This document shows positions 4,410-14,447 of a stretch of DNA of 14,504 bases, piece after piece. The DNA lies in sequence record NC_042564.1. The stretch is one strand, 5' to 3'. The first letter of the stretch is position 1; each line of letters opens with the position of its first letter. Below the pieces are notes generated by a model. The model worked only from the letters and a program-made list of their open reading frames with translations, ran no database searches and was not told the origin of the DNA. The position numbers and the translations under genes are program-made. Source of the DNA: Escherichia phage Bf23.

Positions 4410-4487
4410 TGGTGGATTGCCTGGGATTCGAACCCAGAACTGACGGATTAAAGGTCCGCTACTCTTATCCAGTTGAGCTAGCAATCC
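4410..4487 (-). tRNA. tRNA-Lys (anticodon TTT)
   Basis: encoded CCA, perfect T-arm ctggg/attcgaa/cccag, perfect acceptor 4414-4420/4481-4487, D-arm GCTC/GAGT, anticodon loop CCTTTAA (C at position 33). Confidence 0.6.
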
Positions 4488-4951
4488 AAATTCTCTACTA
4501 ATAGTTTGAAAGCGTCTAACAGAGGTACTTCAAACCATTCTCCTGATACTTTGTAGTCTTTCAGAAGATTATGTAATGCTTTTTCAGTTCTTCTCTTGTC
4601 CGAGGAGAATCTAAAATGGTATAACTTGTAATCACGATATGGCGAATATGTTTGATAACTAGACAGTCTTTCATTTACGTCTACTGTCATACCTATCTTA
4701 TAGAGTCCAGGCCATGCTGGGTTACCTATTACATATACAAACCCTTCTGTTATAGGGATTTTATGCTCCCTTTTATACTTCAGCAGGTTTAACGCTGCCA
4801 TTCTATAACAGAACTTAAACTCTGAGGATTTTAGTTTACCTTCTTTACCAGATATTTCGTTATACTTCTCCATATACCTACGTATTAAGGAGTCAGTAAT
4901 AGTAAAGTGCTTTGGAAGATCCAGGGCTTGAAGTACACTGTTAATAAGCAT
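4478..4951 (-). CDS. T5orf172-family (GIY-YIG-like) domain protein, 157 aa; putative homing-type nuclease
   Basis: ORF track; motif GFVYVIGNPAWPGLYKIGMTVDVNERLSSYQTYSPYRDYKL typical of the T5orf172 domain; AAGGAAG SD; paralog of 6749-7267; 3' end overlaps 5' end of tRNA-Lys. Confidence 0.8.
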   Translation of the reverse strand: MLINSVLQALDLPKHFTITDSLIRRYMEKYNEISGKEGKLKSSEFKFCYRMAALNLLKYKREHKIPITEGFVYVIGNPAWPGLYKIGMTVDVNERLSSYQTYSPYRDYKLYHFRFSSDKRRTEKALHNLLKDYKVSGEWFEVPLLDAFKLLVENLDC

Positions 4952-6694: not shown

Positions 6695-6772
6695 TGGCGG
6701 TTCCTGCTGGATTCGAACCAGCAACCCTCAACTTAACAAGATGCCGCTCTAACCAATTAGAGCTAAGGAACC
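6695..6772 (-). tRNA. tRNA-Asn (anticodon GTT), tentative
   Basis: encoded CCA, perfect T-arm gctgg/attcgaa/ccagc, perfect acceptor 6699-6705/6766-6772, D-arm GCTC/GAGC, anticodon loop TTGTTAA but two mismatches in anticodon stem. Confidence 0.5.
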
Positions 6773-7267
6773 ATATAAGTCAGAACTAGAGTTAATACGT
6801 TCTAGATATTTACTAAGATCTCTAGAATTTATACTAAACCACTCATGTTCTTTTAAATCTTTGAAATACTGGTGAATTAGTTTTTCACCTTTTCGTTTGT
6901 CAAACCAAAAAGACCAATGCTCTAACTTATAATCCCTATAAGGGGAATAAGTCTGATATTGAGCTAATCTCTCTTTTGGATTTTGACTCATGCCTATTTT
7001 ATACTGATTTTTCCATGCAGGATTACTAATACAGTATACAAAACCTTCAGAAATAGGAAGTTTATTTTCCTGCTTAAACTTTATAAAGGAAAGTGCAGCA
7101 AGTTTTCTCGAATACATAGTATTTGTATTCTTTTTGGTATTACCATTGGTTCCTGAAAGATTTATATATTCTTCCATAAATCTTTGGATTAGTTCTGCAG
7201 TTATATAGAAGGGCTCATTAGTAACAACGCCTTTCTTTACCAAACTATCAAAAACTTTTGTATGCAC
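6749..7267 (-). CDS. T5orf172-family (GIY-YIG-like) domain protein, 172 aa; paralog of 4478-4951
   Basis: ORF track; GTG start with AAGGAAAGG SD; motif GFVYCISNPAWKNQYKIGMSQNPKERLAQYQTYSPYRDYKL; 3' end overlaps 5' end of tRNA 6695-6772; the T5orf172 domain is, as I recall, named after a 172-aa ORF of phage T5. Confidence 0.8.
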   Translation of the reverse strand: MHTKVFDSLVKKGVVTNEPFYITAELIQRFMEEYINLSGTNGNTKKNTNTMYSRKLAALSFIKFKQENKLPISEGFVYCISNPAWKNQYKIGMSQNPKERLAQYQTYSPYRDYKLEHWSFWFDKRKGEKLIHQYFKDLKEHEWFSINSRDLSKYLERINSSSDLYGSLALIG

Positions 7268-9872: not shown

Positions 9873-9950
9873 TGGTGGCTCCCCGAGGATTCGAACCTAC
9901 GTACCTTCCAGTTATGAGCTGGGTGCTCATACCATATGAGCTTGAGAACC
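9873..9950 (-). tRNA. tRNA with anticodon CAT (Met, initiator or Ile2 type)
   Basis: encoded CCA, acceptor 9877-9883/9944-9950 with two G-U, D-arm gctc/gagc, anticodon loop CTCATAA; T-stem has only 3 good pairs. Confidence 0.5.
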
Positions 9951-9956
9951 AGAATT

Positions 9957-10045
9957 TGGCGGAAGAAGTGGGAATCGAACCCACAAGGCTATATTTCAAA
10001 CCGACAGATTAGCAATCTGCTGCAATACCGTTATGCTATTCTTCC
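9957..10045 (-). tRNA. tRNA-Ser (anticodon GCT)
   Basis: 89 nt class II, encoded CCA, G73, perfect T-arm gtggg/aatcgaa/cccac, perfect acceptor 9961-9967/10039-10045, anticodon loop TTGCTAA. Confidence 0.65.
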
Positions 10046-10059
10046 GAATTTATAAATAT

Positions 10060-10088
10060 ATTATATTAGAAATTTAGCTTCATAGCAA
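10060..10088 (-). promoter_or_regulatory. sigma70 promoter (T5 early-promoter-like), inside 3' end of CDS 10066-10584
   Basis: minus strand TTGCTA (revcomp 10083-10088) - 17 nt - TATAAT (revcomp 10060-10065); A-run upstream. Confidence 0.65.
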
Positions 10089-10584
10089 GAAAATTTTTCA
10101 AGTTTTCGGTAGACATCTCATCCACATCTACAGGGGAAACAAACCCATTTAACTGTCTAGCAAACTTTTCGCCAGCAGGATCATTATCCCCAACAGCTAC
10201 CAATTTAAAAGGTAGTAATTTCAATTGCTTTAATAGCGCTTTTCCTGGAGAAGAACCCAACATTGCCAGGGCTGGATAACCAGCGTTATGTAACGCAACT
10301 GCCTTAAATACAGATTCAGCAATCAATACTACTTTTTCATCTCCATTGAGAGTTTCTAGTCCCCATACACACTGTGTAGTAGAATAAGTAAAATATCTAG
10401 CCTCAAAGGGGCACTTACCATGACCTTTTGGAGCAGAAGGATTATAAGTCTGATAGCCTCTCAACATCCCAGAGAAGTCATACAATGGGACTGTTAGCCA
10501 TCCTTCCGGGCTTAACCAGCAATGATATTTATCTGTATCAAATCCTCTAGATAAGAGATGTTCTGTTAGTTCATCAACAGTCAT
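10066..10584 (-). CDS. Toprim-domain protein (DnaG/OLD/RNase M5-type fold), 172 aa
   Basis: ORF track 10066-10635; ATG at 10582-10584 has GAGAGAGGAA SD and lies downstream of the promoter start, whereas the ORF-track ATG at 10635 lies within the promoter; motifs VVLIAESVFKAVALHNAGYPALAMLGS and LVAVGDNDPAGEKF (conserved Glu and DxD). Confidence 0.7.
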   Translation of the reverse strand: MTVDELTEHLLSRGFDTDKYHCWLSPEGWLTVPLYDFSGMLRGYQTYNPSAPKGHGKCPFEARYFTYSTTQCVWGLETLNGDEKVVLIAESVFKAVALHNAGYPALAMLGSSPGKALLKQLKLLPFKLVAVGDNDPAGEKFARQLNGFVSPVDVDEMSTENLKNFLAMKLNF

Positions 10585-10614
10585 ATTAGATTCCTCTCTC
10601 AAATTTATAAATAT

Positions 10615-10643
10615 ATTATACAGAGAATTTAGCATTCAAGCAA
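10615..10643 (-). promoter_or_regulatory. sigma70 promoter closely resembling classic coliphage T5 early promoters
   Basis: minus strand reads aaaaaattcaaTTGCTTgaatgctaaattctctgTATAATatatttataaatttgagagaggaa; as I recall it, T5 PN25 shares TTGCTT -35, CTGTATAAT, and the initial transcribed motif ATAAATTTGAGAGAGGA. Confidence 0.8.
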
Positions 10644-10788: not shown

Positions 10789-10850
10789 ATATGTTATGGA
10801 TGAGTGATCAAAGAGACACACATTTTCTATATACTAGGAGGTGTCAAAAA

Positions 10851-11831
10851 ATGACAGAAGAAGTAGCTAAGAGTCCTGAAACCGTCGCTAGCGTAGCAGC
10901 AGAACTGCATCGTCACGAGGAATCAGATAAGAAAAAGTGGGAGAACGTCAAAGCCTACGAAGAAGAACATCGTGTTCACGATGATAAAGATGAAGAAGAT
11001 GACGATGATGAACATTGTCATAAATATGGAAAACATAAAATGCAAGAACCAGTAAACGTATTTACTAACGGCTTCCCTGGCATGGGTGCATTCCCAGCTA
11101 ATGCAAGTGCTTTCGGTGGAGAAGGTATGGGCCTATTCGGAGCTATCCTAATCGGTGCTCTATTAACAGGCGGATTTGGTGGTTTTGGTGGTTTTGGTCG
11201 CGGTGCTGGTGTTGCCGCTGAAGGAACCGCTGTGGACGCGATCCTTTCTAACCAAGATACTGCAAGTATTCTAGCTGCAATCAATACTACTCGTACAGAA
11301 GCTAATCAGGGCACCGGGGCTGTTCTAAGCGCAGTAAACGGTGTGGGAGCTGCTCAAGCTGCTAGCACTCAGCAAGTTCTGACTACTATCTACGGTACAG
11401 GTGCTAATCTGTCAAACCAGATCTGTGCTGAAACTCGTAACGTTATTCAGGGTCAGTTCGATCTTTCTCGTCAGATGGATCAATCTTTCGCTGCTAACCA
11501 GATCGCACGTGCTCAAGATAAGTTTGACTCTGCTCAGATTGCTTTCCAGCAGTCTATTCAGACTAACAACCAGTTTGCCGCTGTTCAGGCTCAGATGTGT
11601 GCTAACCAGAATGCTATCGAACGTCAGCTTGCCGAATGTTGCTGTGAGCTTCAGACTGCGATCGCTGGTGTAACTACTGCACGTATCCAGGACGAACTGA
11701 ATGAATGCCGTCTGCGCGAAGCAATCGCTGCAGGTAGCGGTGCAAATGGTCAGGTAATCAACCAAATCGCTGTAAGTCTTGGTGCTATCACTCAGACTCT
11801 GGCTGGTCTGCAGGCTAAACTGCCGGCTTAA
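10851..11831 (+). CDS. hypothetical low-complexity protein, 326 aa: acidic His-rich N-terminus, Gly-rich hydrophobic segment, Gln/Ala-rich helical C-terminal region with Cys cluster (ECCCE)
   Basis: ATG at 10851 with AGGAGG SD 9 nt upstream (ORF-track start 10791 lies within the promoter/leader); GGFGGFGGFG segment; opposite-strand ORFs 11018-11284 and 11412-11894 look like antisense artefacts; codons look E. coli-optimal by eye. Confidence 0.7.
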   Translation: MTEEVAKSPETVASVAAELHRHEESDKKKWENVKAYEEEHRVHDDKDEEDDDDEHCHKYGKHKMQEPVNVFTNGFPGMGAFPANASAFGGEGMGLFGAILIGALLTGGFGGFGGFGRGAGVAAEGTAVDAILSNQDTASILAAINTTRTEANQGTGAVLSAVNGVGAAQAASTQQVLTTIYGTGANLSNQICAETRNVIQGQFDLSRQMDQSFAANQIARAQDKFDSAQIAFQQSIQTNNQFAAVQAQMCANQNAIERQLAECCCELQTAIAGVTTARIQDELNECRLREAIAAGSGANGQVINQIAVSLGAITQTLAGLQAKLPA

Positions 11832-11852: not shown

Positions 11853-12269
11853 ATGAGTAAATATGGTTTTGTAAACAACGGATTTAATCAACAAATGGGC
11901 TCCCAGCAGCCCGTTCCTGGTCTGGATAATCCTTACCTACAACAGTTGCAACAGCATTTAGCAGAAGCGCAACAGATGCAGCAACAACTCCAGCAAAACC
12001 CTGGAAGTGTGAGTCCTATGCAAATGATGCAGCAAATGAGCGGGCAGTCGCAAATGCCTCAACAAATGCAGCAACAGGTGCCTCAGCAGCAAGTTCAGCA
12101 ACAAACCCAACAACCGCAGGTTTCTGCGGAAGGACAGGCAGTACTAGCCCTTTTCGAAGATTTCGCAAAGACAGAGGATGGGAAACAGCTTGTATCACTT
12201 ATGGGTAAGTTTAATAGCTTCTGCCAAAGCCAAGTTGCAAAAGCTCAAAATGGTGGTAATAACTCCTAA
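11853..12269 (+). CDS. hypothetical Gln-rich (prion-like composition) protein, 138 aa
   Basis: ORF track; ATG with GGGGAGGAG SD; 21 nt after the stop of the upstream gene; long Q/M/P-rich tract then short structured C-terminus. Confidence 0.65.
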   Translation: MSKYGFVNNGFNQQMGSQQPVPGLDNPYLQQLQQHLAEAQQMQQQLQQNPGSVSPMQMMQQMSGQSQMPQQMQQQVPQQQVQQQTQQPQVSAEGQAVLALFEDFAKTEDGKQLVSLMGKFNSFCQSQVAKAQNGGNNS

Positions 12270-12278
12270 GGAGGAATT

Positions 12279-12473
12279 ATGTGTTGCAGAAAATCTGTTT
12301 CGTGCTGCCCAATGCCTGTAGCACGTTGTTGCTCTCCAGCAATGTTTACACAAATACCGGCGTTCAATCCCTTTGCCTTTAAGCCTACTCTTATCCTGCC
12401 CCCTAGAGTAGATTTTCAGTCAAGATTGGCCTCCCGTATGGGTGGTTGCTGTAATAAGAGTATATGGTTCTAA
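12279..12473 (+). CDS. hypothetical Cys-rich small protein, 64 aa (four CC doublets)
   Basis: ORF track; ATG with AAGGAGG SD that overlaps the TAA stop of the upstream gene; followed by rho-independent terminator. Confidence 0.55.
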   Translation: MCCRKSVSCCPMPVARCCSPAMFTQIPAFNPFAFKPTLILPPRVDFQSRLASRMGGCCNKSIWF

Positions 12474-13650: not shown

Positions 13651-14152
13651 TTTAAGTATTTTTAAGAACTCTCGTAAAAACTCTTAAAAATACAGACGAT
13701 ACCGGGAGAGTCATAAGTCTCACTCATTAAGTATTTCAAGACAAAATACAGTAACGTCTATTATTTTCCAGTTTAAGTCAAGGTGACTTAGTGGTTATGT
13801 CCTGCGGTATGCTGAGGACTCGGTTAGGCTAGGGTCATGACTCCCCACCTTTTTGCTGCTACTCAACAGGAGTTATCGCGAATTACCTGTGCTATTGTGC
13901 ACCATTAGTGGCATCTCTCATGCCAGCATTTCCCACTTTGTGGATAGTTTGAAAAACTACTCCGATATGGAGAAAGAACTTCACTATCCTAGAATACCTT
14001 CTAAAGTTCTTCTTTAGCCTGGACATAGTTAAATCGTAATAAAACTATTCAGCAGACTGGTTGGTTAGTCTGGAACCAACTACCGCGTGGTTTAGGCAGT
14101 GCGCAACTAACCTCGGAAGCTTTTACGTTAAAAGCATCAGTTATCCAGTTCT

Positions 14153-14224
14153 TACCGTCCGTAGGATTCGAACCTACATCTTCCACCAGTTACGGCTTGA
14201 TAATACCAATTATACTAGGACGGC
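14153..14224 (-). tRNA. tRNA-like gene, isotype undetermined (possible pseudogene)
   Basis: perfect T-arm gtagg/attcgaa/cctac (14161-14177) and 6-7 bp acceptor pairing (14154-14160/14218-14224) but no recognizable anticodon stem; CCA not encoded. Confidence 0.35.
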
Positions 14225-14447
14225 AGTGTTACTACATAAGTGATTTCCACACCCCACTATTTATAAATTAGAGAAGAGTTTAGGGGAGAGGTTTCAGACG
14301 CCCCATTTTATACGTTCTAGCCACTAACCGGGATTGCCGCCCCCTGTGTACTAGTTTTACAACTAACCCACCGACTCTATTCAGTGCACTCCGGTTGGGA
14401 TTCTGCACTCAGCGTAATCGGCTCGCTGTTCCCTAATTTATGAATAT

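Follow-up and report, generated by a model that had tools for sequence, protein, structure and literature searches.

Rad, a retron anti-defence protein encoded among the tRNA genes of a T5-like phage, has the fold of a minimal catalytic core of DnaG-type primases

Introduction

Rad (retron anti-defense) was described by Azam et al. as the product of ORF75 of the T5-like phage SP15 in a preprint (10.1101/2023.03.15.532788), where, expressed from pBAD, it alone rescued deletion phages from retrons Ec67, Ec78, and Ec83 and phage lambda vir from Ec48 and Se72. Here we analyse an open reading frame (ORF) at 10066-10584, minus strand, of a window of 14,504 nucleotides (the whole stretch of DNA that was analysed; sequence record NC_042564.1, Escherichia phage Bf23), and report that it is this gene and that its product is a complete minimal DnaG-type primase catalytic core. 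An original prediction, made from the letters of the window and a list of its ORFs, had seen in it a stand-alone Toprim protein in a tRNA cluster and had considered a role in RNA processing or as a nuclease.

In the same preprint the Rad of T5/SP15 inhibits retrons strongly, homologues from Privateer, a Shigella phage, and vB_Sen_I1 work too, and the substitutions R13E, P33T, I88T, D135H, and E156H weaken the protein. There, Rad reduces msDNA (multicopy single-stranded DNA) as well as the msr-msd non-coding RNA (ncRNA) but not the mRNA of the reverse transcriptase (RT) or the effector, and degradation of the retron ncRNA was proposed as the mechanism. Rescue by ORF75 from retron-Eco2 and retron-Eco7 was subsequently published (PMC11555353; Nat Commun 2024), and Rad has been termed an anti-defence protein of SP15 (PMC12673091). 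In the literature searched we found neither a mechanistic follow-up on Rad nor biochemical data on template-directed oligoribonucleotide synthesis by it.

Rad can be compared with two groups of known proteins. The catalytic cores of DnaG-type primases (E. coli DnaG 111-433, 1DD9/1DDE; Aquifex, 2AU3; T7 gp4, 1NUI) have an acidic metal-binding cluster that Rad keeps at five of six positions, and the T7 gp4 primase fragment has a core of similar size; these proteins prime, whereas the known role of Rad is counter-defence and no replicative helicase adjoins its gene in T5-like phages. The Toprim nucleases (RNase M5, OLD/GajA/AriB, and the Toprim effector that retron-Eco2, a target of Rad, itself uses) have the Toprim metal-binding fold in common with it. 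As set out below, we consider it highly probable that rad is an early, dispensable counter-defence gene whose product, a minimal DnaG-type core, neutralizes several host retrons.

Results

Identity, Start Codon, and Promoters

Between 9000 and 12500 the window is T5-like phage DNA, 97.5% identical to T5 36213-39698, and the order of genes (hegA, tRNA(CAU), tRNA-Ser, rad, divergent promoter) is shared with T5. The encoded protein is 99.4% identical to T5.076, the sole difference being F60 here and L60 in T5, and 100% identical to that of Salmonella phage vB_Sen_I1, one of the Rad homologues already tested. The same ORF is ORF071 of the T5 record AY587007, labelled 'DNA primase' and lying between ORF070 and ORF072, and the literature equates T5 ORF071 with Rad. 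In addition, all five residues mutated in the preprint (R13, P33, I88, D135, and E156) are found at exactly those positions of the 172-residue protein. We conclude that the ORF is rad, alias ORF75 of SP15, a gene whose existence and phenotype were previously known and which occupies the same position, between hegA/tRNA-Ser and the divergent promoter, as the rad of SP15/T5 (10.1101/2023.03.15.532788; PMC11555353). Rad was found in 481 phage records. Many public records label it 'DNA primase' or 'hypothetical protein', and T5.076 (NC_005859) is 'DNA primase' in RefSeq and 'hypothetical, Toprim sub-domain' in GenBank.

The Phe that this window has at codon 60 (10405-10407) is present likewise in 20 of 24 T5-like alleles and in vB_Sen_I1. 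Since the Rad proteins of vB_Sen_I1 and T5 differ within their 172 residues only here, residue 60 may be a functional determinant, or the difference in their reported activities may be an expression artefact.

In the program-made ORF list the frame begins further upstream, with an ATG at 10635, which yields 189 residues, the length also given in the published description of Rad. This upstream in-frame ATG (10635-10633) sits inside a sigma-70-type promoter, between its -35 and -10 hexamers, and therefore cannot be the Rad start. The position of the promoter and the GAGG that precedes the ATG at 10584 favour the 172-residue form, as does the exact fit of the residue numbers in the preprint, and they bear out the coordinates first assigned to the gene. 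The T5 annotation places promoter P15a at the homologous site, where a promoter scan returned an overlapping hexamer pair, TTGAAT-18-TATATT. A second promoter, equivalent to T5 P15b and lying within the final rad codons, transcribes into tRNA-Ser(GCU) (9957-10045) and tRNA(CAU); it belongs to the context of the gene and is not part of the function of the Rad protein.

By eye, rad is seen to be flanked by an exact 19-nucleotide direct repeat, aatttataaatatattata (plus strand), at 10047-10065 and 10602-10620, 555 nucleotides apart. Both copies are followed a few bases on by aatttagc and coincide with the -10 regions of P15b and P15a.

Fold of Rad

Against Pfam, Rad matches Toprim_2 alone (24.5 bits, residues 88-149), and to this extent the view that only the Toprim core is recognizable stands. 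It does not extend to the N-terminal 100 residues, which correspond by homology to the primase core's N-terminal subdomain. In the PHROGs, residues 3-167 match phrog_849, 'DNA primase', with E = 6e-62 at profile positions 146-337 of 435, and from this span it follows that the N-terminal 100 residues are primase-homologous and that just the first ~145 profile positions are missing. Likewise, hhalign places residues 25-168 on E. coli DnaG 198-360 with a probability of 96.5% (E = 8e-10), and an AlphaFold (AF2) model was obtained with a predicted local distance difference test score of 95.8 and a predicted template modelling score of 0.91. A profile of 88 members of the Rad family, searched against solved structures in the PDB, matched DnaG primases only, with RNase M5-like small Toprim proteins at E about 0.4-0.7; the family profile was required here, a search of the PDB sequences with Rad as a single sequence returning chance matches only (e.g. 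xylanases). Within the N-terminal subdomain R13, G43, Y47, (R/K)63-Y64, and G75 are near-invariant, and R221 of E. coli DnaG aligns with the invariant Tyr, Y47. Rad is thus a catalytic core of the DnaG primase type, minimal yet complete, composed of the N-terminal subdomain and the Toprim fold.

What sets Rad apart from DnaG-type primases is the absence of both a zinc-binding domain and a helicase-binding or helicase domain. No match to Zn_ribbon_DnaG, the CHC2 zinc ribbon, was found in Rad, whereas T5.121, the primase of T5 itself, does match; the phrog_849 match begins only at profile position 146. Nor does Rad have conserved Cys or His residues that could serve as zinc ligands, as its N-terminal cysteines C22, C58, and C72 are not kept and 37 of 88 relatives have no Cys at all in this part. 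The absence of a zinc-binding primase domain had been correctly foreseen. After the Toprim fold there is no helicase-binding domain, the protein ending 14 residues beyond it and the phrog_849 match stopping at position 337 of 435. Among DnaG-like proteins that lack a zinc finger, we compared archaeal DnaG (exosome-associated), Mycoplasma MG010 (TIGR00646), and the N-terminal domain of metazoan Twinkle. The score of Rad lies far under the model cut-off of TIGR00646 (260 bits), so that Rad does not belong to this family; the metal ligands that Rad keeps have been lost from Twinkle; and, unlike Rad, none of the three is a phage counter-defence factor. TtDnaG2 was considered as a further precedent and rejected, since its paper shows a zinc-binding domain and only the helicase-binding domain is missing.

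Comparison with the Toprim nucleases gives a different picture. On the AF2 model they superpose on the Toprim half alone, the N-terminal half of Rad being specific to primases. In whole-protein comparison Rad is not homologous to RNase M5, whose C-terminal (rRNA/uL18-binding) domain it lacks, and it has neither the ABC ATPase domain nor the partner of OLD, GajA, and AriB. Assignment to the RNase M5 or OLD family, as the original prediction had entertained, is thus not supported by the phrog_849 and DnaG matches, and the comparison with Toprim families that it had proposed retrieves the DnaG primases. The prediction had itself named strong homology to a primase fragment with primase-specific motifs as the observation that would speak against it, and this is what phrog_849 and the alignment with DnaG reveal.

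The family is large. An exhaustive HMMER search returned 436 clusters of relatives, defined at 50% identity, of which 250 had E < 1e-10, so that the family comprises at least 250 clusters; nearly all members are stand-alone proteins of 160-200 residues. Similarly, in all 80 environmental loci retrieved with a 12-sequence sub-alignment of relatives, the homologue is a stand-alone ORF of 171-209 residues. The description of Rad as a stand-alone ORF product with a Toprim core, a conserved Glu (E90), and a DxD motif (D133/D135) is in this respect confirmed.

Active Site

The six-residue acidic cluster of DnaG is kept in Rad at five positions (E90, D133, D135, D153, and D155), the equivalent of D269 being K94 (Table 1). 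The 88 relatives in which conservation was counted share 29-49% identity with Rad, a single close homologue standing apart at 87%. Among the 88, E90 is kept in 87, D133 in 77, D135 in 83, and D153 in 82; R13 is kept in 86, Y47 in 87, a basic residue at position 63 in 88, and Y64 in 87; position 156 is E or D in 77. Positions 94 and 155 covary. Of 51 sequences with K or R at 94, 50 have D155; of 87 with D94, 84 have G, N, A, or S at 155 and 3 have D155. In a neighbour-joining tree computed without columns 94 and 155 the K-type falls into several clades (of 24, 22, 6, 1, and 1 sequences), which suggests that the two types may have been interchanged more than once, a tree of such short and divergent proteins being weak evidence. 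On the strength of the alignments, the conserved and co-evolving acids point to a functional rather than a decayed metal centre.

These residues bear on the main rival to a catalytic Rad, namely that the protein is a non-catalytic binder derived from a primase core, which would sequester the msr-msd RNA, the msDNA, or the RT such that the retron complex cannot mature or fire. DnaG cores bind single-stranded DNA (ssDNA) along a basic groove, which favours such a binder. The E. coli DnaG-ssDNA structure 3B39 is among the structure matches of Rad, and one canonical acidic residue of the cluster is replaced by Lys. Moreover, D135H and E156H reduce activity only slightly when present singly, and loss takes double mutants (preprint 10.1101/2023.03.15.532788). 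On the other hand, the metal-binding acids are retained among relatives with as little as 29-49% identity to Rad, the covariation of positions 94 and 155 conserves charge, a pattern more in keeping with a working metal site than with a scaffold, and residual activity of the single mutants could suffice under the pBAD expression used in the rescue assays. We regard a non-catalytic Rad as unlikely.

Primase Complement, Selection, and Dispensability

The complete primase of T5 is T5.121, in which Zn_ribbon_DnaG, DNAG_N, and Toprim domains are all found and which is encoded beside the DnaB-like D6 helicase. T5 rad, by contrast, is bordered by tRNAs and a gene for an HNH endonuclease, and 32 kb separate it from D6 and pri. 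A recent origin of Rad as a paralogue of the phage's own primase was rejected, as T5.121 and Rad (T5.076) are 23% identical and fall into separate PHROGs (47 and 849).

The RefSeq label would make of Rad a second, auxiliary DNA primase, which would prime phage DNA synthesis either with no sequence specificity or by means of a zinc finger provided in trans. The complete fold of the DnaG catalytic core, the conserved acids, and the basic-Tyr motif are in line with such a role. In Guernseyvirinae the replication module ends with the gene of a 171-residue homologue, which overlaps the stop codon of an SNF2 helicase gene and encodes the only recognizable primase catalytic domain that we found there. 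This overlap is seen in the replication module of Raoultella phage RP180 (L004/L055; ORF31-ORF32), where a search of ORF42, the 'replicative helicase-primase', for a primase domain found only an AAA_25 ATPase, its N-terminal 330 residues matching nothing. A fusion with a DUF3268 zinc-finger domain, seen in one relative (P0085), was a lead towards a zinc finger in trans; it was dropped, for DUF3268 genes are widespread in unrelated phages (Ackermannviridae-size genomes, Pseudomonas and Xanthomonas phages), with no visible link to T5-like or Guernsey-type genomes. Against auxiliary priming stand the lack of zinc-binding and helicase-binding domains in Rad, the complete primase that T5 encodes next to the replicative helicase, the location of rad in a tRNA region that can be deleted, its absence or disruption in phages that are viable, and the change in retron RNA and DNA levels that Rad causes when expressed alone from a plasmid (preprint 10.1101/2023.03.15.532788). 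Such priming is thus unlikely in T5-like phages, and as an account of Rad we consider it very improbable; for the relatives in Guernseyvirinae it is conceivable.

Judged from its presence in 481 phage records and from its alleles, rad is more than a chance ORF. It is under strong purifying selection, with a ratio of non-synonymous to synonymous substitution (dN/dS) of about 0.055 among 24 T5-like alleles; of the 129 sites that vary, 85 are third codon positions. We rejected the possibility that it is a degenerate remnant or pseudogene on the basis of this ratio and of the conserved active-site residues. Two of 26 natural alleles are nevertheless disrupted, both from IMG/VR T5-like genomes, one by an in-frame stop at codon 83 (L026, 6001-6519) and the other by a frameshift near codon 140 (L029, 6001-6520), which is consistent with a conditionally useful accessory gene. 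ORF071-075 have been reported as lost from BF23 (PMC10644984), and the deletion mutants T5n and SP15m, which are without rad, are still viable (PMC11555353, PMC12673091).

Relatives and the tRNA Cluster

The placement of rad in a tRNA cluster is confirmed by 23 tRNAs that ARAGORN finds in the window and one more found by Rfam. This placement, together with co-transcription of rad with the tRNA genes around it, would suit a Toprim nuclease similar to RNase M5 or OLD and engaged in processing the neighbouring phage tRNAs from their precursors, as would relatives elsewhere that stand beside an RtcB-like gene, a tRNA nucleotidyltransferase gene, or cassettes of Rnl1-type RNA ligase and kinase. However, Rad has no ABC ATPase domain, the known phenotype of rad is anti-retron, and a scan of the 6-8 kb around four more distant relatives found no tRNA genes and just a tmRNA-like call, in one of the loci (L056). 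Processing of tRNA precursors is accordingly an extremely improbable function. Of the RNA-processing or nuclease role first proposed for the protein, a non-replicative and RNA-directed role agrees with the complete T5.121, the dispensability of rad, and the published depletion of msr-msd ncRNA, while tRNA precursors as the target do not find support.

The neighbourhoods of the relatives look like RNA-repair or counter-defence islands, and the family may conceivably have a wider role, these patterns being uncontrolled statistically, with no background comparison. The 80 environmental loci form 11 clusters at 60% identity, four of which have an Rnl1-type RNA ligase within about six genes, and many of the loci have an AAA_33 kinase, a metallophosphoesterase, a DSP phosphatase, NAMPT, or an NMNAT-Nudix gene close by. 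Distant Demerecviridae-like contigs have the same NAD-salvage neighbours.

Among individual cases, relatives of the D94/G155 type (IMG/VR L063-L142, e.g. L094, L103, L112, L128, L086, L070, and L073-L075) often lie a few genes from an Rnl1-type RNA ligase (PF09511), and further genes similarly close to relatives of this type encode, besides the kinase, phosphoesterase, phosphatase, and NAD-salvage proteins named above, a GNAT-like protein (stop codon 17 nucleotides upstream of the homologue), a DUF2828/DUF7788 protein, and an ATP-dependent DNA ligase. The homologue of Vibrio phage F96 abuts a tRNA nucleotidyltransferase gene. In Erwinia jumbo phages a split homologue is found directly upstream of an RtcB-like RNA ligase gene; in phage Deimos-Minion (L061, 2987-3511) it is divided by a frameshift just after 'VWGLE' into gp49, with the N-terminal subdomain, and gp50, with Toprim, which may reflect programmed frameshifting, a split gene, or a pseudogene. 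Two-piece matches occur also in several other jumbo-phage records, mostly of Erwinia phages.

Other Features of the Window

Next to rad lies a divergent unit of three ORFs (Table 1), for whose proteins no Pfam match was found. The label 'cAMP-dependent protein kinase catalytic subunit' that the second carries in AY587007 appears unfounded. ORF072, ORF073, and kapc of AY587007 map to this unit and should belong to the ORF071-075 block that BF23 lost with rad.

The element that ARAGORN reports as a 'tRNA-Ser' with the unusual anticodon ACT is probably tRNA-like rather than a working tRNA. Two paralogous proteins with T5orf172/MUG113 domains are encoded among the tRNA genes. T5 carries the HNH endonuclease genes hegC and hegD at other positions of the tRNA region, and the content of mobile nucleases thus differs among close relatives.

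Table 1. Positions of rad, its parts, and further features in the window
Feature	Position	Strand	Remarks
rad coding sequence	10066..10584	-	172 codons + stop 10066-10068; orthologue of T5.076, T5 ORF071, SP15 ORF75
Shine-Dalgarno GAGG	10593..10596	-	8 nt 5' of ATG at 10584; read from sequence
Sigma-70-type early promoter, T5 P15a equivalent	10610..10643	-	TTGCTT 10643-10638, 17-nt spacer, TATAAT 10620-10615
Second promoter, T5 P15b equivalent	10060..10088	-	TTGCTA-17-TATAAT, within final rad codons
N-terminal subdomain of DnaG-type RNA-polymerase domain, residues 1-82	10339..10584	-	helix 3-12, strands 30-35, 41-47, 64-68
Toprim fold with metal-binding cluster, residues 83-158	10111..10338	-	Pfam Toprim_2
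Single C-terminal helix, residues 159-172	10069..10110	-	ends protein; AF2 secondary structure, helix 159-170
E90	10315-10317	-	E. coli DnaG E265 (hhalign); Toprim Glu, 'IAESVFKA'
K94	10303-10305	-	E. coli DnaG D269 (hhalign)
D133	10186-10188	-	E. coli DnaG D309 (hhalign); DxD D133-N-D135, 'GDNDPAG'
D135	10180-10182	-	E. coli DnaG D311 (hhalign)
D153	10126-10128	-	E. coli DnaG D345 (hhalign)
D155	10120-10122	-	E. coli DnaG D347 (hhalign)
24th tRNA gene, T5 tRNA-Ile2/Met(CAU)	9876-9950	-	Rfam tRNA model 38.2 bits; identical to T5; missed by ARAGORN
'tRNA-Ser', anticodon ACT	14152-14225	-	ARAGORN; stretch matching T5 719-nt stable 'RNAX'
Divergent unit, first ORF	10791-11831	+	346-residue Gly/Ala/Gln-rich protein
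Divergent unit, second ORF	11853-12269	+	138-residue Gln-rich protein
Divergent unit, third ORF	12279-12473	+	64-residue Cys-rich protein
T5orf172/MUG113-domain gene	4478-4951	-	paralogue of the next
T5orf172/MUG113-domain gene	6749-7267	-	overlaps tRNA-Asn by 24 nt

Discussion

To the genetic anti-retron phenotype established by others, the present analysis adds the orthology of the gene, the fold of its product, a conserved centre, purifying selection, and the complete primase that T5 has alongside. We propose that rad would be transcribed early from its own promoter, within a tRNA-rich 'anti-defence island' of T5-like phages, and that the two-metal Toprim centre inherited from a primase may have been turned to attack or block the retron ncRNA or msDNA, for example as a nuclease. 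The sensor complex of the retron would then not be built, and the phage would escape the abortive infection that the retron triggers. That rad is a counter-defence gene of this kind we hold with considerable confidence; the catalytic step, in which the Toprim metal centre itself attacks or blocks the retron nucleic acid, is to us the likeliest mechanism but a more tentative proposal, for and against which we judge the case to be nearly balanced, leaning slightly to the negative.

Several observations weigh against the proposal. DnaG-type cores are not known to act as nucleases, and depletion of msDNA is expected to activate, not silence, some retron toxins. In vitro nuclease activity of Rad is not reported in the literature, and Rad has Lys (K94) at the equivalent of D269 of E. 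coli DnaG. Degradation of ncRNA as a mechanism rests on one preprint (10.1101/2023.03.15.532788) and was dropped from the later paper, which says that the mechanism cannot yet be determined (PMC11555353). According to the preprint, activity was only 'slightly reduced' by substitutions made singly, D135H in the DxD motif among them, a mild effect that would not be expected of a strictly catalytic mechanism, and the Rad of vB_Sen_I1, identical to that encoded in this window, protects just slightly to moderately.

Hydrolysis is not the only chemistry open to such a centre. Because Rad keeps an essentially complete DnaG catalytic centre, primase-type chemistry is conceivable, and Rad could act as a nucleotidyl-transferase on the msd ssDNA or the branched RNA, for example by laying RNA on the msDNA or blocking the priming guanosine. 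The zinc-finger-less primase cores of ~170 residues could, in addition, have wider roles in counter-defence or RNA repair, of which the anti-retron activity would be only one case. Taken jointly, that Rad performs primase-type chemistry rather than hydrolysis on retron nucleic acid and that its core family is a general counter-defence or RNA-repair class, this reading seems to us rather unlikely.

Retrons are both defence systems and genome-editing tools, and of the reported inhibitors Rad covers the widest range of them, with Eco2 and Eco7 in peer-reviewed work and Ec83, Ec48, and Se72 in the preprint. For this protein the public label 'DNA primase' is misleading. The finding that Rad is a whole DnaG core, and not a generic Toprim nuclease, narrows the mechanistic options to a nuclease, a nucleotidyl-transferase, or a binder, and it provides the candidate metal ligands of the protein, namely E90, D133, D135, D153, and K94 paired with D155.
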